32,000 bases of DNA from Acutalibacteraceae bacterium (GCA_045536305.1 JAZSNH010000086.1:1-32000); one strand, 5' to 3'; shown: positions 7,489-27,379, counted from the first letter of the stretch. Numbers and translations: made by a program. Notes: generated by a model from the sequence alone, not told the origin.

Positions 7489-9243
7489 TTATTCCATTAT
7501 AATTGCGTCAAATCGGCAGGACTTGCGGCACTGATCGCAGCGTATGCATAGCTTGGGGTCAATGACGTGCGCTTCCTTGACGTTGCCCGTAATAGCTCTC
7601 GCCGGACAGTTCCTGGCACAGAGAGTACAACCGCGGCATTTGTCTGCATCGATAATATAGGTGCGAAGAGCAGGACATTCCTTGGTGGGACATTTTTTGT
7701 GGACGATATGAGCAACATATTCATCTCTGAAATATCGTATAGTTGTAAGGACAGGGTTGGGAGCAGTCTGACCGAGACCGCAGAGAGCGCCGTCCTTAAC
7801 AGCATTGCAAAGCTCCTCTAAAAGCTCAATGTCGCCGTCCTTGCCTTCGCCCTCAACAATACGTGTGAGTATCTCCTGCATACGCTTTGTGCCGATACGG
7901 CAGTGTGTGCATTTGCCGCAGGATTCAAGAGCGGTGAAGTCAAGGAAAAACTTAGCCATGCCGACCATACAGGTGGATTCGTCCATAACGACCATACCGC
8001 CTGAGCCCATGATAGCGCCTGTTGCGCCGAGAGCCTTGTAGTCGATTACCGTATCAAGCAGCTCGGCAGGAATACAGCCGCCCGAGGGACCTCCCATCTG
8101 AACTGCCTTAAATTCCTTATTGTCGCGAATACCGCCGCCGATACCGAAAATAACATCTCGCAAGGTCTTGCCCATAGGTATCTCGACAAGACCACCCTTG
8201 CGTATCTTGCCGGTAAGGGCAAAAACCTTTGTGCCTTTGCTGTTTTCTGTTCCCATTGCCGCAAAGGCTGCGCCGCCGTTGTTGATTATCCATGAAACGT
8301 TGGCAAAGGTCTCAACATTGTTTATATTGGATGGTGCATCCATATATCCGCGCTGAGCGGGGAAGGGGGGTTTAAGGCGCGGCATGCCGCGTTTGCCCTC
8401 GAGTGATTCTATAAGAGCAGTTTCCTCTCCGCAGACAAATGCTCCTGCACCTGCCTTTATTCTCATGTCACAAGAGAAATCGGTGCCAAGAATGTTATTG
8501 CCCAAAAGATTGGCTTCTCTTGCCTGACGTATGGCTTCTTCGAGATGAACGATTGCCAGAGGATATTCGGCGCGAACATAAACTATCATTTCACATGCTC
8601 CTATAGCGTAAGCACCTATGAGCATGCCCTCGATAAGGGTGTGCGGATCAGATTCAATAACAGCTCTGTCCATAAACGCGCCGGGATCACCTTCATCGGC
8701 GTTGCAGATGAGGTATTTGTTTTCGCCTGTGCTCTGACGAGCGGCGTTCCATTTGAACCAGGTTGGAAAACCGGCACCGCCGCGTCCGGCAAGACCTGAA
8801 AGCTTTATTTCTTCTATAACCTCCTCAGGGGTCATGGAGGTAAGAACCTTCTTTAATGCTTCGTATCCGTCTGCAGCACAGTAATCCTCAAGAGAAGTTG
8901 GGTCGATAAGGCCACAGTGGCGCAGTGCTATTCGGGTCTGCTTTGTGAGAAATTCTTCATCTTCAGAGGAAATAAAAAGCTTCTCTACATGAGAGAGATC
9001 ACCCGTGCGAGCGGTCTCGACAATAGCGTCAGCATCATCGGGAGAGACACGAACAAGTCTTTTAAGAAGATTTTTATTATCATCATAGAGATCAACAATA
9101 GGCTCTAAAAAGCACATTCCGATACAGCCTGTACTGCCGAGGGTAAAGCCTTCGTTTTCCTTCATCAGAGCTTCGATGGCAGAGTGTACCTTAGCGGCAC
9201 CCGCAGCAACACCGCAGGAGCCTTCACCGATAACAATTCTCAT
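7489..9243 (-). CDS. NuoF/HydB-like NADH-binding FMN/Fe-S subunit
   Basis: The 584-aa product has an N-terminal thioredoxin-like 2Fe-2S domain and the GRGGAGFPT FMN/NADH motif. It also has the ESCGKCTHCR N3-type cluster and a C-terminal 2x[4Fe-4S] ferredoxin (CRGCTLCARNCP, CIRCDQCRKSC). Its start overlaps the upstream stop as ATGA. Confidence 0.95.
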   Translation of the reverse strand: MRIVIGEGSCGVAAGAAKVHSAIEALMKENEGFTLGSTGCIGMCFLEPIVDLYDDNKNLLKRLVRVSPDDADAIVETARTGDLSHVEKLFISSEDEEFLTKQTRIALRHCGLIDPTSLEDYCAADGYEALKKVLTSMTPEEVIEEIKLSGLAGRGGAGFPTWFKWNAARQSTGENKYLICNADEGDPGAFMDRAVIESDPHTLIEGMLIGAYAIGACEMIVYVRAEYPLAIVHLEEAIRQAREANLLGNNILGTDFSCDMRIKAGAGAFVCGEETALIESLEGKRGMPRLKPPFPAQRGYMDAPSNINNVETFANVSWIINNGGAAFAAMGTENSKGTKVFALTGKIRKGGLVEIPMGKTLRDVIFGIGGGIRDNKEFKAVQMGGPSGGCIPAELLDTVIDYKALGATGAIMGSGGMVVMDESTCMVGMAKFFLDFTALESCGKCTHCRIGTKRMQEILTRIVEGEGKDGDIELLEELCNAVKDGALCGLGQTAPNPVLTTIRYFRDEYVAHIVHKKCPTKECPALRTYIIDADKCRGCTLCARNCPARAITGNVKEAHVIDPKLCIRCDQCRKSCRFDAIIME

Positions 9244-9737
9244 TTCCCTGCCTCCTTTGCCTTAATATCTTTGATTATAGCGATAGCACTTTCTGGGGTA
9301 AGATTGCCATAAGCTTCGCCGTTTATCATAATTACGGGGGCGAGAGAACAGCAGCCGAGACAAGCGACATTTTCAAGAGTAAAAAGTCCGTCCTTTGTGG
9401 TCTCACCGTTTTCGATTTCAAGGTATTTAGCGACAGCTTCGCCGACACGCTTACTGCCGTTTACATGACATGCAGTGCCCTGACAAGCCATAATAAGATA
9501 TTTTCCGATAGGAGTAAGACGAAACTGAGAATAGAAGGTAGCGACACCAACAACCTCAGCAGGTGAAGTGCCGATACGTTCTGCGATATGATACATCACA
9601 TCACGGGGAAGATAGCCATATATCTCCTGAGCCTTCTGCAAAATAGCAATAAGGCTTCCTGGAATATGGGCGTATTCGTCAAGCACACCCTTGAGCAGGG
9701 AAAGATCGCTCGAAGGTCCTTTGCAATTACTGCACAT
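9240..9737 (-). CDS. NuoE/HydC-like [2Fe-2S] subunit
   Basis: The Cys motifs are CQGTACHV and CLGCCSLAPV. I chose the ATG at 9737 (MCSNCKG...) because GGAGG lies 9 nt upstream. The ORF-track extension to 9803 has no SD. Confidence 0.9.
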   Translation of the reverse strand: MCSNCKGPSSDLSLLKGVLDEYAHIPGSLIAILQKAQEIYGYLPRDVMYHIAERIGTSPAEVVGVATFYSQFRLTPIGKYLIMACQGTACHVNGSKRVGEAVAKYLEIENGETTKDGLFTLENVACLGCCSLAPVIMINGEAYGNLTPESAIAIIKDIKAKEAGK

Positions 9738-9764
9738 AATAAATTTCCTCCAAAAGAGTTGATT

Positions 9765-9798
9765 TGTCAAAGCGTCGGCATTATGCACGGCTTTGACA
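9765..9798 (-). promoter_or_regulatory. Inverted repeat TGTCAAAGC-N16-GCTTTGACA in the leader/promoter of the redox operon
   Basis: The 9-bp arms are perfect (9765-9773 / 9790-9798). The element ends 27 nt upstream of the nuoE-like ATG. It could be an operator or a 5-prime-UTR hairpin. Confidence 0.35.
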
Positions 9799-9961
9799 CA
9801 CAAAACAATTTAACAGATTATTATATAATCTTATAACGTAACAAAGGAAAAATCAACGCTTTACAGCATTAAAAAATAAATTTCCATGGAAAAGTTAGAA
9901 AGAACGAAGTATGGATATGTCTTTGAGTATGTTTTATTGTAAAAAACAGATATTTTATAGC

Positions 9962-10000
9962 AAAGAAGCCTCCGTTCTATCTTTGAACGGAGGCTTCTTT
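9962..10000 (-). terminator. Intrinsic terminator of the RyR cassette
   Basis: A 16-bp perfect stem, AAAGAAGCCTCCGTTC (9962-9977) / GAACGGAGGCTTCTTT (9985-10000), starts 2 nt after the stop codon at 10002-10004. Confidence 0.75.
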
Positions 10001-10001
10001 G

Positions 10002-10289
10002 CTATTTCTTTATGTCGTAACCGAGCTTGATGATGAGCTTGAGAGTTTCAACCGAAGTGTTGCGGTCATATTCCTTCTCGCTTTCGGGAAGCTCTTCGTA
10101 TGGGATAAGACAAGGGTGATGCTTAAGCTCATCATTTCTGACCGGGCCGTAGGTCCAGCCCTGTTTGATTCTGGTCAGAGCCCATACCTCATGCGTGTTT
10201 TTTGCCATATACTCAACAAGCTCCTGAAGATCCTCCGGTAATGTAACATCGGAAGTATCGATGGGTGAAGGCTTATAATTTTCGTACAT
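10002..10289 (-). CDS. Stand-alone RyR (ryanodine-receptor repeat) domain protein, 95 aa
   Basis: It carries the RyR-domain motifs PIDTSDVTLP, HEVWA, GWTYG, PYEELPESEK and SVETLKLIIKLGYDI. It is clearly paralogous to the N-terminus of the upstream gene. The ATG at 10289 has GGAGG 8 nt upstream. The ORF-track extension to 10358 would overlap the upstream gene and has no SD. Confidence 0.8.
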   Translation of the reverse strand: MYENYKPSPIDTSDVTLPEDLQELVEYMAKNTHEVWALTRIKQGWTYGPVRNDELKHHPCLIPYEELPESEKEYDRNTSVETLKLIIKLGYDIKK

Positions 10290-10312
10290 AGTATATTCCT
10301 CCTTCGTTATTA

Positions 10313-12817
10313 TCAGAACGGTAAGCTGATCTCGCTTCCGGCAGTAAGAAGAGTCCATTCGCCGATCTCTTCGACAGCGGCACGAGCGGCATCTATAAAT
10401 ATCTTTTGCGCGGCCTTGGTCTCTGCTTCGGTGGGGAGAGCATCATCCGAGACAAGAACGCCGTCGAGGCAAGCGGTGAGCTTCTGATATTTAACTGCCA
10501 TCCATTTATATCGCAGAGCGTTATCGGAATACAGCTGGCTTTCATGGAAAATTAGCAAGCATCCGATAATGGCAGGTATAATACCGATGAAGAAAATAAA
10601 GAGTGACTCGCCTATGGTGTAATATATGCCGGTATCAAACTGATCTGTAAAAAGATCGCGCCAATTTTCGTGAGATATTCCGTTGGTATTTGCAAAAAAA
10701 ACTATAAAAGCGGCGATAGTAACAGCCAGAGTTAATACAACAGCGGATATGGTGGAGATTTTTCTGAAGATTAAAAGTCCCTTTGCCTTTTTGAAATACT
10801 CACTGCCTCTTCCTCTGTCAAAGTCCATCTGTGCTTTATCGGAGGACGGAATATAAACCTTTGCGTTGCTCTGACCGTCAAGCAGACTGTCCGCGGAGCC
10901 TATCCACATCCTGCGTATGGTATCAAGAGGTATATAAGCCTGACGGCTGCTGTCATAATAGCCTGCGGCCGCATCGACAATATTCCAGCCTCTGTATATA
11001 TACTGAGCCCACTCAAGTTCCTGCTGCTGGCGTTCGCTGAGAAATTCGCTCGCATCGATTTCGTGAATACCTGCTGCGTTGAGGTATGTCTTGACTCTGA
11101 GCATCTCGGAAAGCAGACGCATATTGAGGTGGACGCTGTGGTAATTCTTATGCTGAGTGATAAAGAAAATGACAAGTGCGGCAATTATGCCGAGAGCCGA
11201 GAGCGAGCCGCCGATAATACCGATGAGTGAGCGAGAGGAAGCAAGATCGGAAAAGATACCGTAAGATGCGAGACCTATGCCCGCAAATACAGAAACAAGA
11301 ACAGTCTGAACTTTTTTGGCATTTTGGAAAAGAGTAGCAACAGTATCAAGTCTCAGATGACGCATATTAACAGCATCGGCAGAAAGGCTTTTGCCGTGTG
11401 TGCTGTCGTTCAGGAGATCGTATTCCTGAGTGGTTCTTTTCGAGTTTTCAATTTTTATTATTGAACGATTGATATTGTCGTACATGCCGATGTTTAGGAA
11501 ATAACGATTCTTTTTGGATTGCTCCAGCGCATCGTTATAATCCTTCTTGTTTTTGGCTCGTTTAATATTTTTCCGGAGATCTGTGCGGAGTTTTTTCTTA
11601 GCCTTTGAAAATTCCTCGTCAGAATACTTTATAAGACGTCTGATATGGGCTTTTTCACCATCGGAAAGCTGTTTGTTTGCGGCCTCTGCAATAAGCTTTT
11701 TGTGAGTAATTCTGTCGTGCTGTGAGATAAGCTTTTTCTTATCATCCTTATATTTTTCCCTTAATTTCTTGATTTCCTTGCGTATGATAGGTTTGATCGA
11801 GCCTGTTGCAACAGTGGCCTCAGTTTCGCCCATAATGACATTGCACTTTTTCTTTTTATCATATACAAGCTGAACATTATTGAGTGTATACCAGTTTTTG
11901 CCTGATTCAAGTATATACGGAAGCAGCAGGCGGCTCATCCAATGAAGCTCGCTCCTGACCTCTCCGGGGAGGACAATATGATAAACAGCGTGAGAATCAT
12001 TGATAGCAGTGCGTTGAGGATCGGGCGATGCTGCATCAAATTCAAGAAGCGATCTGCGTACGGCAGAGCCTGCGCGGCTATTTTTATCTATACCCTTCCA
12101 GAGTGCAAGGAGAAGAAAAGAGTTGTTTGCGATATACTCTTCTGCGCTGCAGGGAACGGTTATATGTTTGAGGTCATAATCCATAAGTTGTGCGGCATCA
12201 TTGTTTACACAGATAATCTCAATGCCGTATTTTTCTGCGGCGTAGTAGGCGGCAGAAATTTCAGTGTTATTGGCAAGCTCCGAAATTATATAAATCGGAG
12301 TTTTTCTTTCGCTGTTAGCGGTTTTTTCACAGGTCATATCAAGCGATTCGAAGATGTGACAGGCAAAAGCGTCAATTGATTTCTGCAGAGAATTCATACA
12401 CAGCTCACTGCAGTCATCACCAGATAATCCGATTATAAAGGGCGCGTGATAAAGAGGTGCGGCTTTGTCGTTATGATATTTCTTGAAATAGCTGCGCTCT
12501 ATCTGACCCCAATATGTGTTGTCTTTCTTTTCGATTTTGTAGCCTCTGCTGATTATCAGCTTGACTGTCTCCTCTACAGAGTTGATGTCCGCCAGCTTTT
12601 CGGCAGGATTGAGGCAGTCATAGGGTTTAAGAAAAGAGTTCTTTTTGTAAGTATTGTCATCCGATTCCCCATAAGTATAGCCGGCCTTCATTCTTTTTTC
12701 GGCCCATCCTTCGTGAGCATTGCAGGCGAGGTCATCAATAAGCAGGTTCAGCTCATCGGGAACAGTGACCTGTGTCGTATCCACCGGATGAGGAACATAA
12801 ATTTTATTTTCGTCCAA
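10313..12817 (-). CDS. 834-aa multidomain membrane protein: N-terminal RyR domain, Rossmann-like domain, basic coiled coil, two 2TM hairpins
   Basis: The start is TTG (12815-12817), 7 nt after GGAGGG. RyR motifs lie at aa 10-97 (PVDTTQVTVP, HEGWA, GYTYG, PYDCLNPAEK, SVEETVKLIISRGYKI). A beta-alpha-beta pattern spans aa ~125-245 (PFIIGLSG ... PIYIISE ... IEIICV ... FLLLALWKG). A Lys/Arg-rich helix covers aa ~340-440. Hydrophobic hairpins lie at aa ~503-555 and ~685-757. Confidence 0.85.
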   Translation of the reverse strand: MDENKIYVPHPVDTTQVTVPDELNLLIDDLACNAHEGWAEKRMKAGYTYGESDDNTYKKNSFLKPYDCLNPAEKLADINSVEETVKLIISRGYKIEKKDNTYWGQIERSYFKKYHNDKAAPLYHAPFIIGLSGDDCSELCMNSLQKSIDAFACHIFESLDMTCEKTANSERKTPIYIISELANNTEISAAYYAAEKYGIEIICVNNDAAQLMDYDLKHITVPCSAEEYIANNSFLLLALWKGIDKNSRAGSAVRRSLLEFDAASPDPQRTAINDSHAVYHIVLPGEVRSELHWMSRLLLPYILESGKNWYTLNNVQLVYDKKKKCNVIMGETEATVATGSIKPIIRKEIKKLREKYKDDKKKLISQHDRITHKKLIAEAANKQLSDGEKAHIRRLIKYSDEEFSKAKKKLRTDLRKNIKRAKNKKDYNDALEQSKKNRYFLNIGMYDNINRSIIKIENSKRTTQEYDLLNDSTHGKSLSADAVNMRHLRLDTVATLFQNAKKVQTVLVSVFAGIGLASYGIFSDLASSRSLIGIIGGSLSALGIIAALVIFFITQHKNYHSVHLNMRLLSEMLRVKTYLNAAGIHEIDASEFLSERQQQELEWAQYIYRGWNIVDAAAGYYDSSRQAYIPLDTIRRMWIGSADSLLDGQSNAKVYIPSSDKAQMDFDRGRGSEYFKKAKGLLIFRKISTISAVVLTLAVTIAAFIVFFANTNGISHENWRDLFTDQFDTGIYYTIGESLFIFFIGIIPAIIGCLLIFHESQLYSDNALRYKWMAVKYQKLTACLDGVLVSDDALPTEAETKAAQKIFIDAARAAVEEIGEWTLLTAGSEISLPF

Positions 12818-12848
12818 ATTTCTTCCCTCCTAAGTATACTTTATTAAA

Positions 12849-12876
12849 ATTATATCAGAAAAAAAGGAATAATCAA
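12849..12876 (-). promoter_or_regulatory. Candidate sigma-A promoter of the RyR cassette
   Basis: The minus strand reads TTGATT-16 nt-TATAAT. The -10 element ends about 31 nt upstream of the TTG start. Confidence 0.45.
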
Positions 12877-12985: not shown

Positions 12986-13840
12986 ATGAAATTTGAAAAT
13001 CTCTTTCTTGACGAGGAACGGGCACTTTATGCGGTGAAAAATGCTGAGGTCGTAAACTGCCGCTTTGACGGACCTGCCGACGGTGAATCGGCACTTAAGG
13101 AATGTGCTGATATATCATTGAGGGATTGCTGTTTTAACCTGCGTTATCCGTTGTGGCATGTGACAAGAGCAACTGTTGATTTATGCGAAATGACAGAAAA
13201 TTGCCGTGCCGCATTATGGTATGATAAAGAGATATATATTAAAAACTGTGTTTTGAACGGTATAAAGGCAGTTCGCGAGTGTGAAGGTGTTGTGCTTGAT
13301 AGGTGCAGCATAGCTTCGCCTGAGTTTGGGTGGTTCAGCAGCGATGTTAAACTGACCGACTGCACCGTTGAGGGAGAATACCCGTTTTTAAAAGCAAACG
13401 ATCTGGAGCTTAAAAGAGTGAAACTCAAGGGCAAATATTCCTTTCAATACGTAGAAAATATGGTTATAAGGGAGTCGGTGCTCGATACAAAGGATGCATT
13501 CTGGCACAGCAGGAATGTTACAGTGTATGACAGTGTGATTAAAGGTGAATACCTTGCATGGTACTCCGAAAATCTTCGCCTTGTCAGGTGTAAGATAATA
13601 GGAACTCAGCCGCTTTGCTATGCAAAAGGTCTTGTTCTCGAGGACTGTGAAATGGAAGATACCGACCTTTCCTTTGAGCGCAGCGAGGTAGATGCTGTAG
13701 TCAGGGGAGATATTTTAAGTGTGAAAAACCCAATAAGGGGATACATAAAGGCAGACTCGATAGGTGAAGTGATAATGGACGATACACTGCCAAAACCGTC
13801 TGTCTGCAGGATCGAAATCTCAGACCGCATTGTTGTATGA
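12986..13840 (+). CDS. DUF3737-like parallel beta-helix repeat protein
   Basis: The 284-aa cytoplasmic product has repeated segments such as V.NC.F, L.DC.F, I.NCVL, LDRCSI, LTDCTV, IRESVL and LVRCKI, typical of right-handed beta-helix coils. The N-terminus (EERALY...DGESALKE) resembles DUF3737. Confidence 0.65.
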   Translation: MKFENLFLDEERALYAVKNAEVVNCRFDGPADGESALKECADISLRDCCFNLRYPLWHVTRATVDLCEMTENCRAALWYDKEIYIKNCVLNGIKAVRECEGVVLDRCSIASPEFGWFSSDVKLTDCTVEGEYPFLKANDLELKRVKLKGKYSFQYVENMVIRESVLDTKDAFWHSRNVTVYDSVIKGEYLAWYSENLRLVRCKIIGTQPLCYAKGLVLEDCEMEDTDLSFERSEVDAVVRGDILSVKNPIRGYIKADSIGEVIMDDTLPKPSVCRIEISDRIVV

Positions 13841-13884
13841 GACTTTGATGAATCAAACCGATACAGCAGATAAATTTAAATACA

Positions 13885-19004: not shown

Positions 19005-20501
19005 GTGTTAGAGTCTTTAGGTGGATTTCTTAAGGATAAGCTCAAGGATCGATCTATGAGAGTTGATGAGTTCTTATACAGGTCAAAAATAAGTCGATCA
19101 AGCTTTTACCGAATGCTAAACGGTATACAGTATCCATCTCAGGAGGCTGTTAACGCAATAATCTCAACACTTAATTTTACAGCCAAGGAAATAATCGAGC
19201 TTGATTATTATATGAGCCTTTTGAATGTGGATAAAAACACTCTGTCAGCACGTGATGAGATAACAGACATGCTTTTCGGCTCACAGAAGGATAATGTGGA
19301 ATTTAATTGTGATGTAATTCTTTATGATGGAGATAGGTACTTAAGAACTATTCAGGATATTTTTGCAATAGTAAATGAAGCATCCAGGAAAGATGGATTT
19401 AGTTGTTCGGTCAGTATAGTGAATTGCTGCCGCCATGCGATTATTTCGAGAATTAGGGAAGCGCTGCTTGACATTGAAAGCAAGGGCGTTGCCTGTAACA
19501 TTGAGCATCTGATCGGTTTTTCCGAATCAAATCTCAAGGAAAGCGTTAATGCGCTTCATGAGCTGCTTCCGCTGCTGACATTCAAAAGCTACAGTGTCAG
19601 ATGCGGCGAAACAACAGCCGCGACCTCGGAAGGAATAATGAAGAATTTCGCAATGATAGATTTCGAGTGGGAAGAGAATGGAAAAAAAGAGAAAAAGCTT
19701 CTTTGCATAAATTTTATCGATGACGGCGCATCTGTTTGTGCTGCGATTTCTGATCCCGGATTTGCTGATTTCTTCAGAAGAAGCTATGATAATCTGAGAA
19801 GGTTCTATATAAATGGTCTTATAGTAAAAAAGCAGCTGCAAACCTTCAGTGCTCACATAATAGATATGGAAGCACATTACGATCTGGTGTTGTTCAAGCC
19901 CGATCCTTGTGACAGCAGAGTTCCCTATGCCGCTTTCAAGCATCTGCGAGAACGTGTTTCCATGGAGGATAAAGCAAAGTTTGTCCGCACGTTTGTAGGA
20001 ATTGAACCCAGAAACGATGAAGAGACAGAATTTTTCATGGAGCAGACATTTGTTTTCCTGAAGGAAAGGGAAGATAATTCAAATAAACATGCCCAGACTG
20101 ATATATGTACCTCGGATGGCCTGCGTCGATTTGCACAGACGGGAAATCTTTCTGACCATGTAGATTTCATTCCGCCGTTTGATAAGACAGAACGCAGACT
20201 GATCCTTGAGAAAATGATAAGCCGTGCTTCCGATCCCGAGGACAAATATAATTTGTATATACTTAAAAATAATTATTCAAATCCTGATATGCTTATGGTG
20301 GTCTATAAGAATAGCGGAGTTTTGATCGAAAACATCAATCCGAAGCATACAACAAGTGAAATGCCGCACTGTTTTATTGAAAATTCAGGACTTGCCAATG
20401 CATTTATAAGCTATGCGGAAAGGGAGATACCAAATAAATATGCCATACCGCATGAAGAAGCAATGGCATTTCTGCAGGGCTTGATCGATGAGTTTTGCTG
20501 A
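19005..20501 (+). CDS. XRE-type HTH regulator with a large uncharacterised C-terminal region (498 aa)
   Basis: The GTG start lies 6 nt after AAAGGAGGAG. The N-terminus LGGFLKDKLKDRSMRVDEFLYRSKISRSSFYRMLNG fits the XRE HTH pattern. I recognise no motifs in the remaining ~430 aa. Confidence 0.75.
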   Translation: MLESLGGFLKDKLKDRSMRVDEFLYRSKISRSSFYRMLNGIQYPSQEAVNAIISTLNFTAKEIIELDYYMSLLNVDKNTLSARDEITDMLFGSQKDNVEFNCDVILYDGDRYLRTIQDIFAIVNEASRKDGFSCSVSIVNCCRHAIISRIREALLDIESKGVACNIEHLIGFSESNLKESVNALHELLPLLTFKSYSVRCGETTAATSEGIMKNFAMIDFEWEENGKKEKKLLCINFIDDGASVCAAISDPGFADFFRRSYDNLRRFYINGLIVKKQLQTFSAHIIDMEAHYDLVLFKPDPCDSRVPYAAFKHLRERVSMEDKAKFVRTFVGIEPRNDEETEFFMEQTFVFLKEREDNSNKHAQTDICTSDGLRRFAQTGNLSDHVDFIPPFDKTERRLILEKMISRASDPEDKYNLYILKNNYSNPDMLMVVYKNSGVLIENINPKHTTSEMPHCFIENSGLANAFISYAEREIPNKYAIPHEEAMAFLQGLIDEFC

Positions 20502-20550
20502 CAGAAAACCGATTTATCAATATATTATTTCGAAAAGCTTATGAATGTTA

Positions 20551-20577
20551 AAAGAGGCTGCCAAAGGCAGCCTCTTT
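20551..20577. terminator. Bidirectional terminator between the HTH gene and gpmI
   Basis: The stem AAAGAGGCTGCC / GGCAGCCTCTTT encloses a 3-nt loop. Confidence 0.75.
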
Positions 20578-20589
20578 AGTTTATATTAT

Positions 20590-22119
20590 TTACAGTATAA
20601 TACTTTCTCCGTCCATCTCAGCAGGCTGAGTCAGACCGAGTATCTTGAGCATAGTAGGAGCGATGTCGGCAAGTCTGCCGCCTTCGCGCAGCTTGCAGTC
20701 ATAACCTACAACACAGAAAGGCACAGGGTTTGTGGAGTGAGCGGTAAAGGGAGAACCATCCGGCTCCATCATCTGATCGGCGTTGCCGTGATCGGCAGTA
20801 ATCAAAACAGAACCGCCCATCTTAAGAGCAGCCTCAACAACCTTGCCGACGCATGCATCAACAGTTTCAACAGCAGCCTTTGCAGCATCAAAAATTCCGG
20901 TATGACCGACCATATCGCAGTTAGCGAAGTTGAGAATGATAACATCATACATGCCGCTCTCGATGCGTGCAACTGTTTCTGCAGCGACCTCAATAGCGCT
21001 CATCTCAGGCTGAAGATCATAGGTAGCGACCTTCGGAGAGGGGATAAGGCATCTGTCCTCATTCTCGTACTGCTTTTCAACACCGCCGTTGAAGAAGAAG
21101 GTTACATGAGCATATTTTTCTGTCTCTGCGATTCTCAGCTGAGACAAGCCGTTCTGAGAAATATATTCGCCAAAGGTGTTGTCAAGGCTCTGCGGCTTGA
21201 ATGCAACCTGCACATTGGGCATTGTTGCATCATACTGAGTCATGCAGACGTAGCAGAGAGGGAAGAAGCCAAAGCGTCTTTCAAATCCGGAGAAATCGGG
21301 ATCGACAAATGTACGGGTGATCTCTCTGGCGCGGTCGGGGCGGAAGTTGAAGAAAATAACAGAGTCGTTTGCCTTAAGAGCAGCATCATCAAGACATACA
21401 ACAGGCAGAACGAACTCATCGGTAACATGTTTGCCTTCTTCGTCGATCGTCTCATAGGATTTACGAATAGCATCAACAGGGTCGGAATTCTTTACTCCCT
21501 CACCGTAAACAACAGCAGAATAAGCCTTTTCGACTCTTTCCCAACGGTTGTCACGATCCATAGCGTAGTAGCGTCCCATAACAGTGGCTACCTTGCCAAC
21601 ACCAATCTCATTGAGCTTTTCAACACATTCTGCAACGAAATCCGCACCGGAAGAAGGGGGAACATCACGGCCGTCGAGGAGGCAGTGAACGTATACCTTG
21701 GAAAGACCTGCACGTTTTGCCATCTCAACAAGAGCATAGAGGTGAGTGTTGTGGCTGTGAACACCGCCGTCACTCATAAGTCCCATGAGATGCAGGGCAG
21801 AATCATTATCAATGCAGTTTTTCATAGCGGCAAGAAGTGCTTCGTTTTCAAAGAAAACACCGTCGGAAATAGACTTGGTTATTCTTGTCAGCTCCTGATA
21901 AACAACACGACCTGCACCGATATTTGTATGTCCTACCTCGCTGTTGCCCATCTGACCGTCAGGCAGACCGACATCCATACCGGAAGCACCGATCTGAGTG
22001 CAGGGATTTTCGGCAAATATTTTATCGAGATTCTTCGTATCTGCAGCGGTAATGGCGTTGCCATACTCATCCTTGATTCCGAAGCCGTCCATTATGCAAA
22101 GTACAAGAGGTTTTTTCAT
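20590..22119 (-). CDS. gpmI: 2,3-bisphosphoglycerate-independent phosphoglycerate mutase
   Basis: The motifs are MDGFG, SDGGVHSH, DGRD, NFANCDMVGHTG and ADHGNAD. The ATG at 22119 (MKKPLVLCIMDG) follows AAGGAG. Confidence 0.95.
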   Translation of the reverse strand: MKKPLVLCIMDGFGIKDEYGNAITAADTKNLDKIFAENPCTQIGASGMDVGLPDGQMGNSEVGHTNIGAGRVVYQELTRITKSISDGVFFENEALLAAMKNCIDNDSALHLMGLMSDGGVHSHNTHLYALVEMAKRAGLSKVYVHCLLDGRDVPPSSGADFVAECVEKLNEIGVGKVATVMGRYYAMDRDNRWERVEKAYSAVVYGEGVKNSDPVDAIRKSYETIDEEGKHVTDEFVLPVVCLDDAALKANDSVIFFNFRPDRAREITRTFVDPDFSGFERRFGFFPLCYVCMTQYDATMPNVQVAFKPQSLDNTFGEYISQNGLSQLRIAETEKYAHVTFFFNGGVEKQYENEDRCLIPSPKVATYDLQPEMSAIEVAAETVARIESGMYDVIILNFANCDMVGHTGIFDAAKAAVETVDACVGKVVEAALKMGGSVLITADHGNADQMMEPDGSPFTAHSTNPVPFCVVGYDCKLREGGRLADIAPTMLKILGLTQPAEMDGESIIL

Positions 22120-22129
22120 TTTAATCTCC

Positions 22130-22897
22130 TTATCTGCCAGCTGCCTTAACAATAGCGGCAAACTTCTCTGCAACAAGGGATGCACCGCCGATAAGACCGC
22201 CGTCAACATCGACCTGATCGAGAAGACCTTCGGCGTTCTTTTCGTTCATGGAACCGCCGTACTGAATAGTGAAAGCCTCTGCGGCCTCTGCGGAATAGAG
22301 CTCTGCGAGAAGCTCACGGATGATGCCGCAAACTTCATTTGCCTGTTCATCGGTAGCGGTAAGACCGGTGCCGATAGCCCAGACAGGCTCATAAGCGATG
22401 ATAACGTTCTTAAGCTCGTCCTCGGCGATCTGCTCGAAAGCCTTGACGACCTGATGTTTTACGATCTGAGCGGTAATGCCTTCCTGACGCTGTTCGAGAA
22501 CTTCGCCGACACAAATAATGGGCTTAAGACCGTTGTCGAGTGCAGCGCGTGCGCGCATTGCGACAGTTTCATCGGTCTCACCGAAGTACTGGCGACGCTC
22601 GGAGTGACCGAGGACTACATATTCTACGCCGATACTCTTGAGCATAGGTGCGGAGACTTCGCCTGTGAAAGCACCCTTTTCTGCCCAGTGGCAGTTCTCG
22701 GCACCGATTTTGATGTTTGTGCCCTTGGCAGCATCAAGAGCTGCATGAAGATCGATAAAAGGTACACAGCAGATAACAGTGCAGTCAGCATCCTTTACAA
22801 GAGGAGCTATCTCGTTGATAAGAGCAGTGCTCTGCTCAGGATTGTTGTTCATTTTCCAGTTGCCTGCGATAACAGCAGCGCGCTTAGCTTTGTTCAT
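22130..22897 (-). CDS. tpiA: Triosephosphate isomerase
   Basis: The motifs are AGNWKMN, GHSERR, AYEPVWAIGTG and YGGS. The ATG at 22897 follows GGAGG. Confidence 0.95.
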   Translation of the reverse strand: MNKAKRAAVIAGNWKMNNNPEQSTALINEIAPLVKDADCTVICCVPFIDLHAALDAAKGTNIKIGAENCHWAEKGAFTGEVSAPMLKSIGVEYVVLGHSERRQYFGETDETVAMRARAALDNGLKPIICVGEVLEQRQEGITAQIVKHQVVKAFEQIAEDELKNVIIAYEPVWAIGTGLTATDEQANEVCGIIRELLAELYSAEAAEAFTIQYGGSMNEKNAEGLLDQVDVDGGLIGGASLVAEKFAAIVKAAGR

Positions 22898-22973
22898 TAT
22901 TTTTTCCTCCCAAAAATTATTATCCAATATATACGGCGGACGCCGAATACAACGCCCGCCGCAAAAATTTATC

Positions 22974-24167
22974 TTATTTCTCGTTGAGGCAAGCGATGCC
23001 GGGGAGTACAAGGCCTTCGAGGAATTCGAGGGAAGCACCGCCGCCGGTGGAGATGTGGGTCATCTTGTCTGCAAAGCCGAGCTTCTCACAAGCTGCAGCG
23101 GAATCGCCGCCGCCGATGATAGAAACTGCGCCGCTCTCAGCAACAGCAGTAGCTACAGCGATGGTACCCTTGGCAAAATTCTCCCACTCGGAAACGCCCA
23201 TAGGTCCGTTCCATACAACAGTACCTGCGCCCTTGATAGCCTCAGCGAAGATAGCAGAGGTCTTGGGGCCGATATCAAGACCCTGCCAGCCTGCGGGGAT
23301 CTTGTCGGAGTCAACGGTCTGGAAGTCAGCATCAGGAGCAAAAGCGGTAGCGACAACATTATCCTGAGGGATAAGGAAGTTAACATTCTTCTCCTTGGCC
23401 TTAGCCATCATATCCTTAGCAAGCTCGACCTTATCGTCTTCGCAGATGGAATCGCCGATGGAATAGCCGAGAGCCTTCATGAAGGTGTATGCCATACCGC
23501 CGCCGATGATTATGGTGTCAACCTTCTCAAGGAGATTGTTGATAACACCGATCTTATCGGAAACCTTAGCGCCGCCGAGGATAGCAACGAAAGGACGAGC
23601 AGGATCGGCAAGAGCCTTACCCATGATGGAGATTTCTTTCTGAATAAGGTATCCGCATACTGCGGGAAGATAATCAGCAACACCTGCGGTAGAAGCGTGG
23701 GCTCTGTGAGCGGTGCCGAAAGCATCGTTTACATAGATCTCTGCGAGTGAAGCGAGAGCCTTGGAAAATTCGGGATCGTTCTTCTCTTCTTCCTTGTGGA
23801 AGCGAACATTCTCGATCATAACAGCTTTGCCTTCCTCAACCTCAGCAGCAAGAGCCTTAGCGCTGTCGCCGATAACGTCAGAAGCGATCTTTACCTCAAA
23901 GCCGAGCTGCTCGGTAAGATATGCAGCAACGGGAGCGAGGGAGTACTTCATATTGAACTCACCCTTAGGACGACCGAGGTGAGAGCAAAGGATGACCTTA
24001 GCGTTGTTCTCAAGGAGGTAACGGATTGTTTTAAGAGCTTCGTCGATTCTCTTGGTATCGGAGATATTGCCTTCGCCGTCAAACGGTACGTTGAAATCGC
24101 AGCGAACCAAAACCTTCTTGCCGGAGACGTTTATGTCTTCGACGCTCTTTTTGTTGAGATAATTCAT
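22974..24167 (-). CDS. pgk: Phosphoglycerate kinase
   Basis: The motifs are [31 protein letters not shown] and GGGDS. The start is the ATG at 24167 (MNYLNKK). Confidence 0.95.
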
Positions 24168-24529
24168 GTCAAAAGCTTCCTTTCTTACGACATTAGCTTT
24201 AACGCTAAGTCTGACAATAGTCGGCGGGTAAATTGCACCGCACATCGTTAAGATTGTAACATAATCGTTAAAGAAATACAAGTATAATTATTGTCACGAC
24301 AAGGCATATATACTCGAAAAAAACAGTACAAATTGTATAAATCGGAAAAACTATGCACGGAATACGGAGATTTTGATTAGTCAGATATGCGGAAAGGTTA
24401 CAAATGTTTGAGCATGTTTAGTTATATTGATACCTCACTGTAATATTTTGTAGTAGTTTTTTTGTTGAAAGTATAAGATGAAATAGGGAAAATAAAATAA
24501 AGGGAACTATTTCGGAAAGGGGTAAATTT

Positions 24530-26092
24530 ATGGAGAAGAACAACGGTATCAATGAGAACATCACAAAGAAAAATAGGGGAAAGCTTAGCAGGTTTGCTGC
24601 GGCAGTATTTATTTTTCTTCTTTTGACCCTGCTTTTCATAGTAACCTGTGTGGGAATCGCTGTGGCAAAACAGGTGTACGTCAGCAATTACTTTATCGTT
24701 GACGGTAAAGTTTATCAGAAAGATAAACACTTTAAGGTGGGCGATGAAGTATACAGCCATGAAGAATATTTTATTGCAAACGGAGAGGTATATGATTACA
24801 GATCGTATATAAACTATGATGGCACCGCTTATGATCGTAGCGATTATTTTGAAGCGGAAAACGGAGTGTTTAGCAAAAATACCCACATTGAATATGAAGG
24901 ATACGGATATTCAAAAGAATACAATTTTGAGGCAGACGGCGAGGTGTATTGCTTGCTCGATTACATAAATCATAACGGCAAAGCATACAGCAGGGAAAAG
25001 TATTACGAATACAAGGGCGAATGCTATGAGATAAAGGAAATAACACTTGCAGGCAAGACATTCAAAAGCAACGCCAAAGAAATACATCTGATCGGGGAGG
25101 AGTGTGAGGTATCGCTTACCGATATTTCCGCTCTTGAGGAATGCAGGCTGCTTGAAATGCTCGGTATCATAGGTTTTGACGGATTTAAGGATATTTCGCC
25201 TATAAAAAGTCTTGAAAATCTAACATACCTTACTCTCGAAGGGAATGATATTTCCGATATACAGCCGTTATCGGGGCTCAGTAACCTTGTGAGCATAGAT
25301 CTGGAAGGAAATAATATATCAGACATAACCCCTCTGGCAGGGCTTGACAGAGTGAAATGGCTGTATCTGAGTTATAACTATATAGATGATATAAGCCTAT
25401 TGAAGGGTATGAAGGCCCTTGAAAATCTGTATATGAGCAATAATTGTGTTTCTGATATCGGTGCAGTGGCAGAAATGGGCGAGCTTACGGTGTTATATGC
25501 AGACAATAATCTGATTGCAGATATATCTCATCTTGGAAAACTCAGTAAGCTCTGCAAGCTCGATTTAAACAACAACAGGATAACCGATATTTCCGCGCTG
25601 AAAGGAAAAACTGAGCTTATCGAGCTGTGGCTTGAAAATAATCAGATAGAGGACATAACACCCATTGCAGAAAGTACAAAAATCAGTGCAATGAGCATTA
25701 TGAATAATAGAATTAAGGATATAAGCGCTTTGCGTGATATGAAAGAGCTGTGTGTGTTGTATGCGGACAATAATGAAATTGACGACATTTCTTCGCTTGC
25801 TGATAAGAATAAGCTTCACACACTTGAAATTTGCTATAATAAGATAAGTGATATAAGCCCCTTGCAAAATAATATGAAAATCAGAAGGCTTATGATAGCC
25901 GTCAATGATATTTCCGATCTTTCTCCCCTGTATGAGCACAGCAAGCTGAGAATGATAAATCTTATGGATAACAGCAGACTTACGGAAAATGATATTGACG
26001 AACTTAAAAAAACGCTTAGCCCTGAATGTACAGTTTTCTTTGTGGATAATGTTTTCGATTATGAGTGTGAGTGTGGAGACTACTGGCCTTAA
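24530..26092 (+). CDS. N-terminally membrane-anchored surface protein with Tyr-rich repeats and internalin-like leucine-rich repeats
   Basis: The 520-aa product has a basic N-terminus (KKNRGKLSR) and one TM helix (aa ~22-46). About nine ~13-aa G-x-x-Y repeats follow, then about twelve 22-aa LRRs (LxxLxLxxNxIxDIxxLxx). Confidence 0.85.
   Translation: MEKNNGINENITKKNRGKLSRFAAAVFIFLLLTLLFIVTCVGIAVAKQVYVSNYFIVDGKVYQKDKHFKVGDEVYSHEEYFIANGEVYDYRSYINYDGTAYDRSDYFEAENGVFSKNTHIEYEGYGYSKEYNFEADGEVYCLLDYINHNGKAYSREKYYEYKGECYEIKEITLAGKTFKSNAKEIHLIGEECEVSLTDISALEECRLLEMLGIIGFDGFKDISPIKSLENLTYLTLEGNDISDIQPLSGLSNLVSIDLEGNNISDITPLAGLDRVKWLYLSYNYIDDISLLKGMKALENLYMSNNCVSDIGAVAEMGELTVLYADNNLIADISHLGKLSKLCKLDLNNNRITDISALKGKTELIELWLENNQIEDITPIAESTKISAMSIMNNRIKDISALRDMKELCVLYADNNEIDDISSLADKNKLHTLEICYNKISDISPLQNNMKIRRLMIAVNDISDLSPLYEHSKLRMINLMDNSRLTENDIDELKKTLSPECTVFFVDNVFDYECECGDYWP
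24701..25039 (+). repeat. About 9 tandem ~13-residue Tyr-rich repeats (protein level)
   Basis: The units read DGKVYQKDKHFKV, GDEVYSHEEYFIA, NGEVYDYRSYINY, DGTAYDRSDYFEAE, NGVFSKNTHIEYE, GYGYSKEYNFEA, DGEVYCLLDYINH, NGKAYSREKYYEYK and GECYEIKEI. Confidence 0.7.
25082..25984 (+). repeat. About 12 tandem 22-residue leucine-rich repeats (protein level, diverged at the DNA level)
   Basis: Examples are LTYLTLEGNDISDIQPLSGLSN, LVSIDLEGNNISDITPLAGLDR and LCKLDLNNNRITDISALKGKTE. Confidence 0.85.
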
Positions 26093-26341: not shown

Positions 26342-27379
26342 TTAACCGTTTTCGCCTATAACGGTACCCCATTTGGTGATACCTTCAAAATTCTCGGCAG
26401 GTAATTCGTTGCCTTCGCTATCGTATATATGCAGTGTTCCGTCAACTTCGCATGCGAGCGAATAACGTTCTACATTTTCGTTTACAAAGATTATTTCGTC
26501 AACCGAATTTTCAATGGAAGCTGCTGTGGTTGCACCTGATGCATCTTCAGAAAAAGCAAAATCATCGTCAGAAGCTGTGGTGCTGTCTTCGCCTGCACAT
26601 TCTGCCTCCCATTTTGCAACCAGCTCAGCTGCGGCGGCAGGATCGGCCTTTGCAGTGTCAAGCGGCAGATCAAACATAGCTTTTGTGCCGTTGTAGCTGT
26701 CGCTGTAGCCTACAACGCCGTCTTCATTCATAGCAAATACGCTCGTTGACGGGGCAATTCCGTCAAAAACAGCAATGCAGACACCTCGGTCAGCAAAAAT
26801 CTCCAGCGAATCAGTCGAAATAAGGCAGTATCTTATACCCTCTGCCGTAGTATCCATTCGGTATGCATCAAGCGAGTAGATGCTCATTCGCCACGGCTCG
26901 AAGCCGTTTATAAGCGGCGTGATTGTCACCGGACACTCGTCCTCAGGTGCAAAGGGTGTTCCGTCTGTTTGCTCGATGGAAAGAACAAGGTAGCTTCTCT
27001 CTTCGCCATCGGCTCTGATGCCCTCAAGTCCCTCGCCGCTTACAATGCCCATAAGAGTAAAATTGTAGCCGTTTGATCGGATGCTTCGGTTGATAACGAC
27101 AGCATCCTCAGAACGAAAGGCCTCGGCTACAGCTGTTTCACCGAAAGTATCCGCAACCTCATCGGGGCGCAGAAAAGCAACAGCAGCAAATACGGTCGAT
27201 GTCATCAGGAACACGGCAGCTATAACAGCTATCAAGACCGCTGAACGTTTTTTTATCACAGTTTTTTCCTCCCTGTTTTGAGGACCCACAGCCTGAATAA
27301 GAAAGGCAACAGTATCTTCCTCAAAGCCGGAATGGGGAACGATGTTTTCCATTTCTCGTTTATACTGTGATTTAATCAT
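26342..27379 (-). CDS. Putative membrane-anchored anti-sigma factor (single TM, large extracytoplasmic domain)
   Basis: The ORF is 345 aa. Its start overlaps the sigma gene stop by 8 nt, and a GGAGG SD lies inside the sigma gene. A short cytoplasmic N-terminus is followed by one TM helix (AVLIAVIAAVFLMTSTVFAAVAFL). No zinc-finger anti-sigma motif is present. Confidence 0.6.
   Translation of the reverse strand: MIKSQYKREMENIVPHSGFEEDTVAFLIQAVGPQNREEKTVIKKRSAVLIAVIAAVFLMTSTVFAAVAFLRPDEVADTFGETAVAEAFRSEDAVVINRSIRSNGYNFTLMGIVSGEGLEGIRADGEERSYLVLSIEQTDGTPFAPEDECPVTITPLINGFEPWRMSIYSLDAYRMDTTAEGIRYCLISTDSLEIFADRGVCIAVFDGIAPSTSVFAMNEDGVVGYSDSYNGTKAMFDLPLDTAKADPAAAAELVAKWEAECAGEDSTTASDDDFAFSEDASGATTAASIENSVDEIIFVNENVERYSLACEVDGTLHIYDSEGNELPAENFEGITKWGTVIGENG

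Follow-up and report, generated by a model that had tools for sequence, protein, structure and literature searches.

Two adjacent genes of an Acutalibacteraceae bacterium each encode a ryanodine-receptor repeat (RyR) domain, in one case on a protein that also carries membrane segments, which raises the question of what such a pair might do in a bacterial cell. The genes lie in a 32,000-nucleotide stretch of DNA, hereafter the window, and all features described below are on its minus strand. The large gene (10313–12817) is an ORF of 834 aa with a TTG start, and homologues of its product likewise start with M-D; the small gene (10002–10289) is an ORF of 95 aa with an ATG start. The TGA codon of the former (10315–10313) and the ATG of the latter (10289) leave a gap of 23 nt, and the two-gene layout proposed in the initial annotation is confirmed by the ORFs and their spacing.

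The pair had been credited with its own near-consensus promoter, and reading of the sequence and a consensus scan place it as claimed, with a −35 box TTGATT at 12876–12871 and a −10 box TATAAT at 12854–12849. The 16-nt spacer includes a TG extended −10, and 10 of 12 consensus positions match. By itself, a consensus match is weak evidence for a promoter, although its position is right; the region holds 12 promoter-like sites, where shuffled sequence gives 7.2 ± 2.3. The strong Shine-Dalgarno motifs, also read from the sequence, are where they were described: GGAGGG (12825–12830), 7 nt before the TTG of the large gene, and GGAGG (10298–10302) for the small gene. The folding energy reveals a terminator-like hairpin at 9958–10004 (−37.7 kcal/mol, z = −11) with a perfect stem of 20–21 bp, stronger than the 16 bp first reported; the stem begins within the stop codon of the small gene and not beyond it, and the coding-strand U-tract that follows is interrupted (UUUGCUAUAAAAU).

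RyR domains and the ligand pocket

Both products contain a RyR domain, as the initial annotation had it, with Pfam PF02026 scores far above the cutoff of 27.4 bits: 88.2 bits for residues 7–97 of the large protein (12527–12799) and 130.8 bits for residues 5–95 of the small one. In a model of pLDDT 90, the fused domain, which was characterized by Pfam, Foldseek, and residue mapping, matches PDB entries 6UAG, 3NRT, and 4N05 (TMt 0.75–0.83, 39–43% identity) and superimposes in Foldseek onto Repeat12 of human RyR3 bound to ATP with an rmsd of 1.2–3 Å on ~90 residues. The small protein matches 3NRT with E=3e-33. The closest solved structure is the "putative ryanodine receptor" of Bacteroides thetaiotaomicron (3NRT, 4N05, 6UAG, 6UAM, 6UG4, 6UG5), which was crystallized as open and closed dimers and to which the depositors gave no function; in contrast to the small protein of the cassette, it stands alone, and these data show no membrane partner for it.

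Bacterial RyR domains had been described as devoid of an assigned function, a view that is now outdated, since RyR domains of bacteria and phages received a biochemical function in 2026 preprints. RyR-domain proteins from phages bind or cleave 2'/3'cADPR via H75/W78/H100/D117 (PMC13232231), residues H129/W132/K147/H154/D171 of RyR Tad act on 2'/3'cADPR (bioRxiv 10.64898/2026.06.04.730250), and the animal Repeat12 shuts like a clamshell on the adenine nucleotides ATP and ADP (PMC12627627). Residues H33, W36, R51, H58, and D75 of the small protein align to the five RyR Tad residues, in this order, and are invariant in 12 of 12 small proteins except for H58, found in 11. By this alignment, the small protein keeps all residues of the cADPR/adenine-nucleotide pocket defined in RyDEP and RyR Tad. 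The pocket of the fused domain is degenerate: it retains H35 and W38 but has Asn60 in place of the second His and lacks the basic residue. The same His-to-Asn replacement occurs in eight of the nine fused RyR domains, whose pocket falls short of that of a cADPR binder.

The small protein shares with the RyDEP/RyR Tad family, whose members form dimers, the PF02026 fold and the pocket residues (His/Trp, a basic residue, the second His, and Asp). These relatives are phage-encoded anti-defence sponges or glycosidases, whereas the small gene is chromosomal and host-encoded and, unlike them, always coupled to a gene for a RyR-bearing membrane protein. Altogether, 255 phage records match the small RyR protein. 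A search for phage-encoded relatives in IMG/VR found none, and two close records labeled "Bacteriophage sp." were rejected as phage homologues because their DNA looks like that of Bacteroidota. The RyR cassette itself is not phage-encoded, the window and all homologous loci being chromosomal contexts.

The SLOG-like α/β domain and the basic stalk

We modeled the large protein with AlphaFold2 from an alignment of 131 sequences (pLDDT 90.4, pTM 0.85). The RyR domain is followed by a Rossmann-like α/β domain (residues ~118–335; 11813–12466), delimited by the secondary structure of the model and the family alignment, and by a Lys/Arg-rich helical stalk (residues ~336–470; 11408–11812), defined by the model, per-domain identity, and the alignment. 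Both regions had been anticipated from the sequence, and the model displays them as an α/β core at residues 127–330 and helices at residues 341–456. Judged by secondary-structure order only, the core seems to be a five-strand β-α-β Rossmannoid arrangement, with strands 127–133, 175–179, 200–204, 235–240, and 277–282 and helices 141–158, 184–197, 225–232, and 248–257 (pLDDT 92–98). The stalk consists of helices 341–366, 369–380, and 386–456; it is the least conserved part of the large protein and differs in length among homologues.

The α/β domain of the window protein matches no SLOG family profile in Pfam. When 22 α/β domains of the family were isolated, YAcAr matched four (best E=4.3e-5), DprA three, and YpsA one, all of them from non-RyR members, and precomputed PF10686 labels are merely sporadic among >1500 homologues. 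The search for PDB sequence relatives of this domain found none, and in the Foldseek search the RyR domain masked the α/β fold. The ligand loops of the broad family, GHR, LAEGAD, and GGT, are replaced in every RyR-bearing member; the window protein has GDD, LANNTE, and RAGS in their place, which speaks against a nucleotide-gated reading, and is missing a ~60-aa insert of the broad SLOG-like family.

Transmembrane modules and probable kinship with the SLATT class

The rest of the protein forms two 2TM modules. Hydropathy, invariant columns, and the consensus profile define module 1 (residues ~471–625; 10943–11407), which is DUF4231/SLATT_3-like, and hydropathy, alignment, consensus, and the model define module 2 (residues ~660–834; 10316–10840), which is DUF2207_C/SLATT_1-like. 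The predicted TM pairs are ~505–525/531–557 and ~685–710/731–760, with hydropathy peaks at 505–523/534–552 and 690–708/739–757 and model helices at 478–525/531–557, 559–581, 663–710/731–760, and 763–787, which bears out the two hairpins of the initial annotation. In module 1, R567, E571, and R574 of the juxtamembrane helix RLLSEMLRVKT are invariant in the 131-sequence alignment; the C-terminal helices of module 2 bear the invariant E817 and W821. No duplication is detectable between the two modules. The closely spaced TM pairs, the conserved cytoplasmic helix, and the predicted cytoplasmic termini correspond to the SLATT-type layout.

An exhaustive profile search with the non-RyR part of the large protein matched 602 cluster representatives, 98 of them at E<=1e-10; the C-terminal 400 aa are homologous to ~600 clusters, and HMMER links the window protein to this broad family at E=1e-20 to 1e-75. 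The family consensus comprises a SLOG-like α/β domain and two 2TM modules, the first of them of the DUF4231/SLATT type, the same architecture as displayed by the AlphaFold model of the window protein. This consensus scores 33.8 bits against DUF4231 (Pfam cutoff 24.7) and, below the respective cutoffs, 20.5 bits against SLATT_1 and 17.6 bits against SLATT_3; the consensus of the RyR subfamily reaches SLATT_1 at E=0.017. Among 71 members, 30 match DUF4231 and 15 match SLATT_1/3/5 at E<=0.01, and DUF2207_C also occurs among the matches of relatives or consensus. The window protein is below every SLOG and SLATT threshold and has no direct Pfam match outside the RyR domain. Its tie to these families is supported by transitive sequence homology, and so is the SLOG/SLATT design proposed initially: the relatives match DUF4231 above the cutoff, SLATT_1/3/5, and YAcAr/YpsA/DprA, while the window protein itself stays under the thresholds and its SLOG-like loops are degenerate.

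The large protein is thus a RyR-bearing, putative SLOG/SLATT-class membrane protein, encoded together with a free RyR protein whose pocket is complete, and the pair is therefore probably a nucleotide-gated membrane effector. For the specific reading of a two-component, SLATT-type effector that is gated by a nucleotide and regulated by a RyR-RyR clamshell, we see about an even chance.

Genomic neighbourhood

The neighbours in the window encode an ABC transporter, a GNAT protein, an NADH oxidoreductase, a DUF3737 protein, a sugar MFS transporter, an amylase, and a MatE protein. The cassette does lie between a redox operon and a sugar cluster, as first noted, but it is no arbitrary insertion: in five loci, four of them besides the window (59–67% identity), it is located between DUF3737 and a NuoE/NuoF/GltD-like NADH oxidoreductase operon, directly upstream of the latter and on the same strand. 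Its GC content is that of the neighbours, which, together with the conserved chromosomal position, makes it unlike a mobile defence island. DUF3737 is still near in the 28%-identical locus L019, and the cassettes of L015, L019, and L023 are also found among housekeeping genes. A search by tblastn and Pfam detected no cyclase, SMODS, or TIR gene in the 32-kb window, in agreement with the initial annotation, nor did any occur within ±10 kb of the cassette in the syntenic MAG L001.

These observations favour a housekeeping sensor or channel, in which the RyR pair would respond to the state of adenine nucleotides or NAD(H)-derived metabolites (ATP/ADP/ADPR), in the way proposed for the animal Repeat12, which binds ATP and ADP, and gate a conductance, for example under energy or redox stress, as a physiological adaptation and not as phage defence. 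Several findings weigh against it. In 185,579 reference genomes, the RyR-fused family occurs in two species, unusually rare for such a function; its neighbours change much more slowly than the large protein, whose relatives fall into SLATT/DUF4231, a class linked to conflict systems. Between the cassette and the redox operon there is also the strong hairpin. Two non-syntenic loci have defence-related neighbours: in the distant homologue L017, the only case of TIR adjacency, the large gene directly follows a gene with a TIR domain, the TIR and effector genes being apparently separate transcription units, and the surrounding 10 kb of L002 include a WYL gene and a Macro gene of the ThsA type (PADLOC 3.6e-14). 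We consider the housekeeping role possible, if on the unlikely side.

No defence island was found in the window; WYL and ThsA-Macro genes are near the cassette solely in L002. PADLOC gave a single weak match to the cassette, LeoBC (E=1.8e-4, 18.8 bits), which covers the K-rich coil and TM1–2, and none to the small protein. The absence of a named system that combines a RyR domain, a Rossmann domain, a double 2TM, and a RyR partner, stated in the initial annotation, holds for PADLOC, NCBIfam, and the searchable literature. The same annotation considered that homologues that were core and syntenic, with no conserved partner gene, would tell against it; the cassette is indeed syntenic and chromosomal in its own lineage, but conservation of the partner gene is clear.

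The partner gene

The RyR-fused subfamily is rare, with ~10 distinct loci, mostly in MAGs of gut Clostridia. Whether a small RyR gene is always downstream was a question raised at the outset, and it is: a gene of 94–100 aa directly follows the large one in 10 of 10 RyR-bearing loci, in the same order and on the same strand, with gaps of 12–78 nt, and a further locus in which the N-terminus of the large gene is cut also has it. Relatives that lack the RyR domain (P0011, the decayed P0006, L012–14) also lack the partner, and in the decayed copy in L020 partner and RyR domain have been lost together. The small proteins are 65–89% identical across loci where the large proteins are 27–67% identical, except for the outlier L018 (48% and 32%, respectively). 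No syntenic neighbour evolves as fast as the large protein, and the partner is highly conserved.

That fused domain and free partner occur strictly together would also fit a toxin-antitoxin-like or guard arrangement, in which the small RyR protein inhibits a membrane toxin via the bait-like fused RyR domain and loss or displacement of the partner frees the toxin. A phage sponge of the RyDEP or RyR Tad type could heterodimerize with either RyR domain, so that an anti-Thoeris protein, and not a nucleotide, is sensed. Such a guard needs no signal synthase, consistent with the window, and the degenerate fused pocket that still keeps its His and Trp would suit it; RyR domains are obligate dimers, phages encode many RyR anti-defence proteins, as illustrated by the 255 records above, and Panoptes offers a precedent for guards that sense phage sponges (PMC12657218). 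On the other hand, the complete pocket of the small partner is under strong purifying selection, which argues that ligand binding matters. Moreover, the small gene is downstream of the putative toxin gene, whereas it would be upstream in most type II toxin-antitoxin pairs, and the hosts in question have no known phage RyR protein. We judge the arrangement improbable.

Finally, that the genes are independent, the small one being a 3NRT-type stand-alone RyR gene common in gut bacteria and a chance neighbour of the RyR-fused one, is scarcely credible: stand-alone RyR proteins that are 66–68% identical do occur on Bacteroidota-like contigs without the large gene, but adjacency, order, and strand are kept in 10–11 loci while the large protein falls to ~27% identity, the intergenic gaps are short, and the partner disappeared along with the RyR domain in L020.

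Proposed mechanism and comparison with known systems

For the nucleotide-gated effector, we propose the following mechanism. The 834-aa protein would be held in the cytoplasmic membrane by its two DUF4231/SLATT-class 2TM hairpins, with the N-terminus, the inter-hairpin region, and the C-terminus all predicted to be cytoplasmic. Its cytoplasmic head would consist of the RyR domain followed by the SLOG-superfamily α/β domain, and the basic helical stalk would link the head to the membrane modules. RyR domains act as two-fold dimers and clamp a ligand in clamshell fashion, from which we infer a Repeat12-like heterodimer of the free RyR protein and the pocket-degenerate fused domain. An ADP-ribose-derived or adenine nucleotide made elsewhere, e.g. 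by a TIR enzyme, may bind and alter this pairing, and the change would travel via the stalk to the SLATT-type modules. These could then oligomerize or open and depolarize the membrane, so that growth stops or infection aborts. In addition, the small protein may set the activation threshold by buffering or hydrolyzing the signal. The role of the cassette would probably be an immune one.

A bolder reading, in which a host-encoded RyR-RyR clamshell gates a bacterial membrane-permeabilizing protein in response to cyclic-ADP-ribose-type signals, strikes us as doubtful. If true, RyR repeats would for the first time be seen to regulate membrane conductance in a cell other than an animal one, and the ryanodine receptor Repeat12 and the SLOG-bearing TRPM2 would both have a counterpart in prokaryotes. 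In its more pointed form, the degenerate fused repeat would be a bait for phage RyR anti-Thoeris sponges and the cassette an anti-anti-defence guard.

Burroughs, Zhang, Schaffer, Iyer and Aravind, in NAR in 2015, are said to have predicted SLOG-SLATT fusions to be nucleotide-activated membrane effectors. The window family resembles these fusions, and with them the Pfam families DUF4231 and SLATT_1–6, in having a cytoplasmic Rossmannoid domain ahead of 2TM modules. The window protein differs from them by an additional N-terminal RyR domain, the obligatory free RyR partner, and the long basic stalk, as well as by the replaced GHR, AEGAD, and GGT loops and the missing insert. Burroughs et al. reportedly also described the relationship between TRPM and SLOG.

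Type VII Thoeris consists of a TIR protein and the SLATT effector ThsH, with canonical cADPR as the signal, and SLOG is the 3'cADPR sensor of ThsA (bioRxiv 10.64898/2025.12.03.692087). The cassette is similar by class, with a SLATT membrane effector and a presumed ADP-ribose-derived signal, and the TIR gene beside the homologue in L017 is a further shared trait. In contrast to type VII Thoeris, no TIR gene adjoins the cassette in the window or in its syntenic relatives, the effector, which combines RyR and SLOG-like domains with two 2TM modules, is much larger than ThsH, and the small RyR protein is a third component.

The animal RyR Repeat12 (ATP/ADP) and TRPM2 MHR1/2 (ADPR) are cytosolic nucleotide-binding modules on a membrane channel, and the window protein unites both module types, RyR and SLOG-like, in a single chain that spans the membrane. 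There is no kinship between the membrane parts, which are 2TM SLATT-type modules here and six-TM cation channels in RyR and TRPM2. The animal RyR repeats are arranged in tandem in one chain, whereas in the cassette one repeat is fused and the other is free.

The cassette and its expression signals

The cassette comprises two minus-strand ORFs separated by 23 nt, a large one (10313–12817) that starts with TTG and encodes an 834-aa protein and a small one (10002–10289) that starts with ATG and encodes a 95-aa protein; positions, starts, and gap are exactly those of the initial annotation. The promoter and Shine-Dalgarno sites assigned to the cassette were also recovered. The promoter (12876–12849, minus strand) has TTGATT and TATAAT boxes 16 nt apart, with a TG extended −10, and scores 10/12; promoter-like sites show only a mild enrichment in this region (12 versus 7.2 ± 2.3 in shuffles). 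Shine-Dalgarno sites precede both genes. On the 3′ side of the small gene, a hairpin (9958–10004, minus strand) starts within the stop codon and has a perfect stem of 20–21 bp (−37.7 kcal/mol, z = −11). Its stem is stronger than that of the terminator initially proposed here, and the U-tract of the coding strand is interrupted. The GC content of the cassette (0.41–0.45) is the same as that of its neighbors.

Domain organization and predicted structure

Both proteins carry an RyR domain (PF02026), which scores 88 bits over residues 7–97 of the large protein and 131 bits over residues 5–95 of the small one, against a Pfam cutoff of 27.4, and neither has any other significant match in Pfam or NCBIfam. 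The only PADLOC hit, a weak one to LeoBC over the first TM pair and the preceding basic coil, was discounted as reflecting coiled-coil/TM composition. Hydropathy analysis of the large protein indicates four TM helices arranged in two hairpins. We modeled this protein with AlphaFold2 from a 131-sequence alignment (pLDDT 90.4, pTM 0.85); a model from only the six close homologues was, as a whole, too poor to use (pLDDT 48.8). The predicted structure is composed of a helical RyR domain at the N-terminal end, a five-stranded β-α-β core (residues 127–282) with further strands up to about residue 330, long helices (residues 341–456), a first TM hairpin (478–525/531–557) and its juxtamembrane helix, a cytoplasmic stretch between the hairpins, and a second TM hairpin (663–710/731–760) followed by two C-terminal helices. 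The RyR domains, the Rossmann-like α/β region, and the two 2TM hairpins first read from the sequence are thus all borne out. Comparison of the two 2TM modules with each other gives no support for an internal duplication (hhalign probability 2.5%).

When compared with the PDB by Foldseek, the full model matches RyR domains only, namely the open and closed dimers from Bacteroides thetaiotaomicron (TMt ~0.8) and the human RyR3 Repeat12 with ATP or dantrolene. A BFVD fold search with the full model gave no significant match, and profiles of the non-RyR part, the broad family, and the α/β domain (alignments A2, A5, and A6, respectively) gave no meaningful match to PDB sequences.

A broad SLOG-like/DUF4231 family

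A word-indexed search of 5.8 billion clusters returned only five full-length relatives of the large protein, and a second one with the RyR-subfamily alignment retrieved the same five proteins and added none. Exhaustive HMMER searching with the RyR domain removed gave 602 cluster representatives at E ≤ 1e-3, including 98 at E ≤ 1e-10. Most of these relatives are 560–720 aa long and align over the C-terminal 400 residues, the α/β domain being also aligned in several. The family consensus starts with IGVTGHR...LSPLAEGADRLVA...LIALWDG...GGT...PVYHIVTPR and continues with two 2TM modules; it scores above the Pfam cutoffs for DUF4231 (module 1) and DUF2207_C (module 2) and just under those for SLATT_1 and SLATT_3. 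Among 71 members compared with Pfam, 30 match DUF4231, 15 SLATT_1/3/5, 11 DUF2207_C, and seven YAcAr, YpsA, or DprA. The isolated α/β domains have recurrent matches in the SLOG/DprA superfamily only (YAcAr four times, with a best value of 4e-5, DprA three times, and YpsA once). Judged by sequence, the large protein is a divergent member of this SLOG-like/DUF4231/second-2TM family. The SLOG/SLATT analogy of the initial annotation reflects a real though transitive homology, because it is the relatives and the family consensus that match the DUF4231, SLATT, and SLOG-family models.

The analysis also defines a large and almost unannotated family, with about 600 clusters of SLOG-like/DUF4231 two-module proteins. 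At 90% identity, the α/β domain (A6; P0154–P0273) accounts for over 1500 clusters, almost all of which are "hypothetical" and devoid of a Pfam domain. Many proteins of the α/β family are stand-alone, 200–450 aa long, and come from Acidobacteriota and similar MAGs of soils and sediments.

The RyR-bearing subfamily and its partner gene

Members with a fused RyR domain are few: the clade of the window protein (P0001–P0004, 59–67% identity), P0005 (41%), and P0007, P0008, P0009, and P0012 (25–34%). Among 185,579 species genomes, close relatives occur in two Acutalibacteraceae MAGs only; an IMG/VR scan retrieved zero relatives and a JGI metagenome scan three, all distant and RyR-less. In every RyR-bearing locus (the window, L001–L006, L015/16, L017, L018, and L019), an RyR gene of 94–100 aa is located downstream of the large gene in the same orientation, and it is also present in L022, where the contig ends within the large gene. 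This small gene is absent beside the RyR-less relatives, namely P0011 (L023), the three metagenome loci, and a split copy in L020, so that the pairing of the two genes initially noticed in the window holds throughout the RyR-bearing loci. In L020 (2386–4520), the large gene is decayed into a 70-aa ORF matching residues 96–150 of the window protein and a 636-aa ORF; neither the RyR domain nor the small partner gene remains. P0006, the protein of this copy, resembled an RyR-less close relative at first, but its decayed and split state makes it weak evidence. In L023, a 551-aa protein (8321–9976) without Pfam or PADLOC match is encoded 25 bp upstream of P0011 on the same strand and is a possible alternative partner.

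Ligand residues have been mapped experimentally in RyR Tad, a phage anti-Thoeris protein, which we used as the pocket reference. The His, Trp, basic residue, and Asp are kept in 12 of 12 small proteins and the second His in 11 of 12. Fused RyR domains keep only the His and Trp, with the second His replaced by Asn in 8 of 9 and the basic residue lost. The ligand pocket of the phage proteins RyDEP and RyR Tad is therefore complete in the small protein of the cassette, whereas it is degenerate in the fused domain. Moreover, every RyR-bearing member has other residues in place of each of the three conserved SLOG-like loops and lacks a ~60-aa insert. Across loci, the small protein is 48–89% identical and the rest of the large protein 27–67%. 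Compared with L001, identities are 78% for DUF3737, 87% for NuoE, 93% for NuoF, 86% for the small, and 62% for the large protein; compared with L019, they are 55% for DUF3737, 65% for the small, and 28% for the large protein. The large protein also diverges faster than all of its syntenic neighbors.

The closest stand-alone RyR genes, 66–68% identical to the small protein of the window, are found in L007 (MT837259.1) and L008 (MT836850.1), two GenBank records labeled "UNVERIFIED Bacteriophage sp." from human faeces. A phage origin was rejected in view of the glycosyltransferase, FecR, and BT4734-like primase genes on these contigs; their content, which also includes WecG, a second FecR anti-sigma factor, and a Schlafen/AlbA_2 ATPase, looks like Bacteroidota chromosomal or mobile-element DNA.

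Proposed function of the RyR pair

[quoted passage not shown] In human RyR3 Repeat12, ATP or ADP is bound in a pseudosymmetric cleft with clamshell-like closure (PMC12627627). The 3′cADPR sensor of ThsA is a SLOG domain, and the effectors of cADPR-signaling type VII Thoeris are SLATT proteins (bioRxiv 10.64898/2025.12.03.692087). No cellular role is described for bacterial RyR domains, and neither an RyR domain combined with SLOG or SLATT nor a bacterial RyR-domain effector was found in the searchable literature.

The best-supported reading, on which we would place about even confidence, is that of a nucleotide-regulated SLATT-class membrane effector with the RyR–RyR pair as its sensor. The free, pocket-intact RyR protein would dock on the fused, pocket-degenerate domain in a Repeat12-like manner, and ligand binding would be passed via the basic stalk to the 2TM modules, whose gating core is probably formed by the conserved juxtamembrane helix carrying R567/E571/R574 together with the C-terminal helix carrying E817/W821. 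As ligand, an ADP-ribose-derived signal produced in trans is the most likely, and the small protein may also serve as a buffer or hydrolase. Heterodimer formation, the ligand, damage to the membrane, and an immune role are all inferences. The finding itself is real, and the membrane effector with an RyR partner put forward in the initial annotation appears largely right. The cassette differs from the SLOG/SLATT effector class by its RyR sensor and obligatory RyR partner and is best filed as a rare variant of that class, undescribed in the literature searched.

Genomic neighborhoods and alternative functions

In the window, L001, L003, L004, and L006 (the latter as far as its short contig reaches), the cassette is flanked by a divergent DUF3737 gene on one side and by a NuoE/NuoF/GltD-like NADH oxidoreductase operon on the other; in L019, DUF3737 is still three genes off. 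TIR, cyclase, and SMODS genes, first remarked to be missing next to the cassette, are absent from the whole 32-kb window. Both the conserved synteny and the lack of a nearby synthase favor the main rival, a physiological sensor of an adenine nucleotide or NAD metabolite, which we regard as possible yet distinctly less probable than the membrane effector. The context differs in two non-syntenic loci, L017 and L002, while L015 and L019 have housekeeping surroundings. In L017, a TIR_2 gene (163–1635) is directly upstream of the RyR-SLOG-like-2TM gene and its RyR partner, with a terminator-like hairpin and a separate promoter in between; its product is an unusual TIR protein, in which the TIR_2 domain, N-terminal and with a candidate catalytic Glu (SYVIHEY), is followed by a coiled coil, a single TM helix, and a DUF6273 domain at the C terminus. 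In L002, WYL, AAA, and ThsA-type Macro genes are found within 10 kb of the cassette, the last of these (13345–13884, Thoeris type II-like, PADLOC 3.6e-14) about 9.5 kb from the P0005 cassette; the contig runs on for about 3.4 kb past this gene and might hold a ThsB TIR gene there. A third reading, with the fused domain baiting phage RyR sponges in a guard or toxin-antitoxin arrangement, seems unlikely.

The cassette places an RyR domain at the sensor end of a SLATT-class membrane effector and couples this effector invariably to another RyR protein, whose pocket is intact. If the membrane-effector model is true, bacterial RyR domains would gain a host-side function, and nucleotide-signaling immunity would gain a sensor of a new type together with a logic in three parts (sensor, partner, and pore). 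The cassette would then also be a tractable bacterial system in which to follow the transmission of nucleotide binding from RyR repeats to a membrane protein; for animal ryanodine receptors, both the role of Repeat12 and regulation by cADPR are still debated. Owing to the 2026 RyR-domain biochemistry, the cassette is now directly testable.

Other features of the window

Long overlapping ORFs occupy both strands at 19005–24281 (19005–20501 and 20545–22149 on the plus strand, the latter against 20590–22209 on the minus strand, plus 22974–24281 on the minus strand). They have a GC content of 0.48–0.53, versus ~0.40–0.43 in the flanks, and zero Pfam or PHROG matches. Next to each other, at 24530–26092 (plus strand) and 26342–27866 (minus strand), are encoded a 520-aa leucine-rich-repeat protein and an ECF sigma factor with an overlapping 345-aa protein, which has no matches and is possibly an anti-sigma factor.
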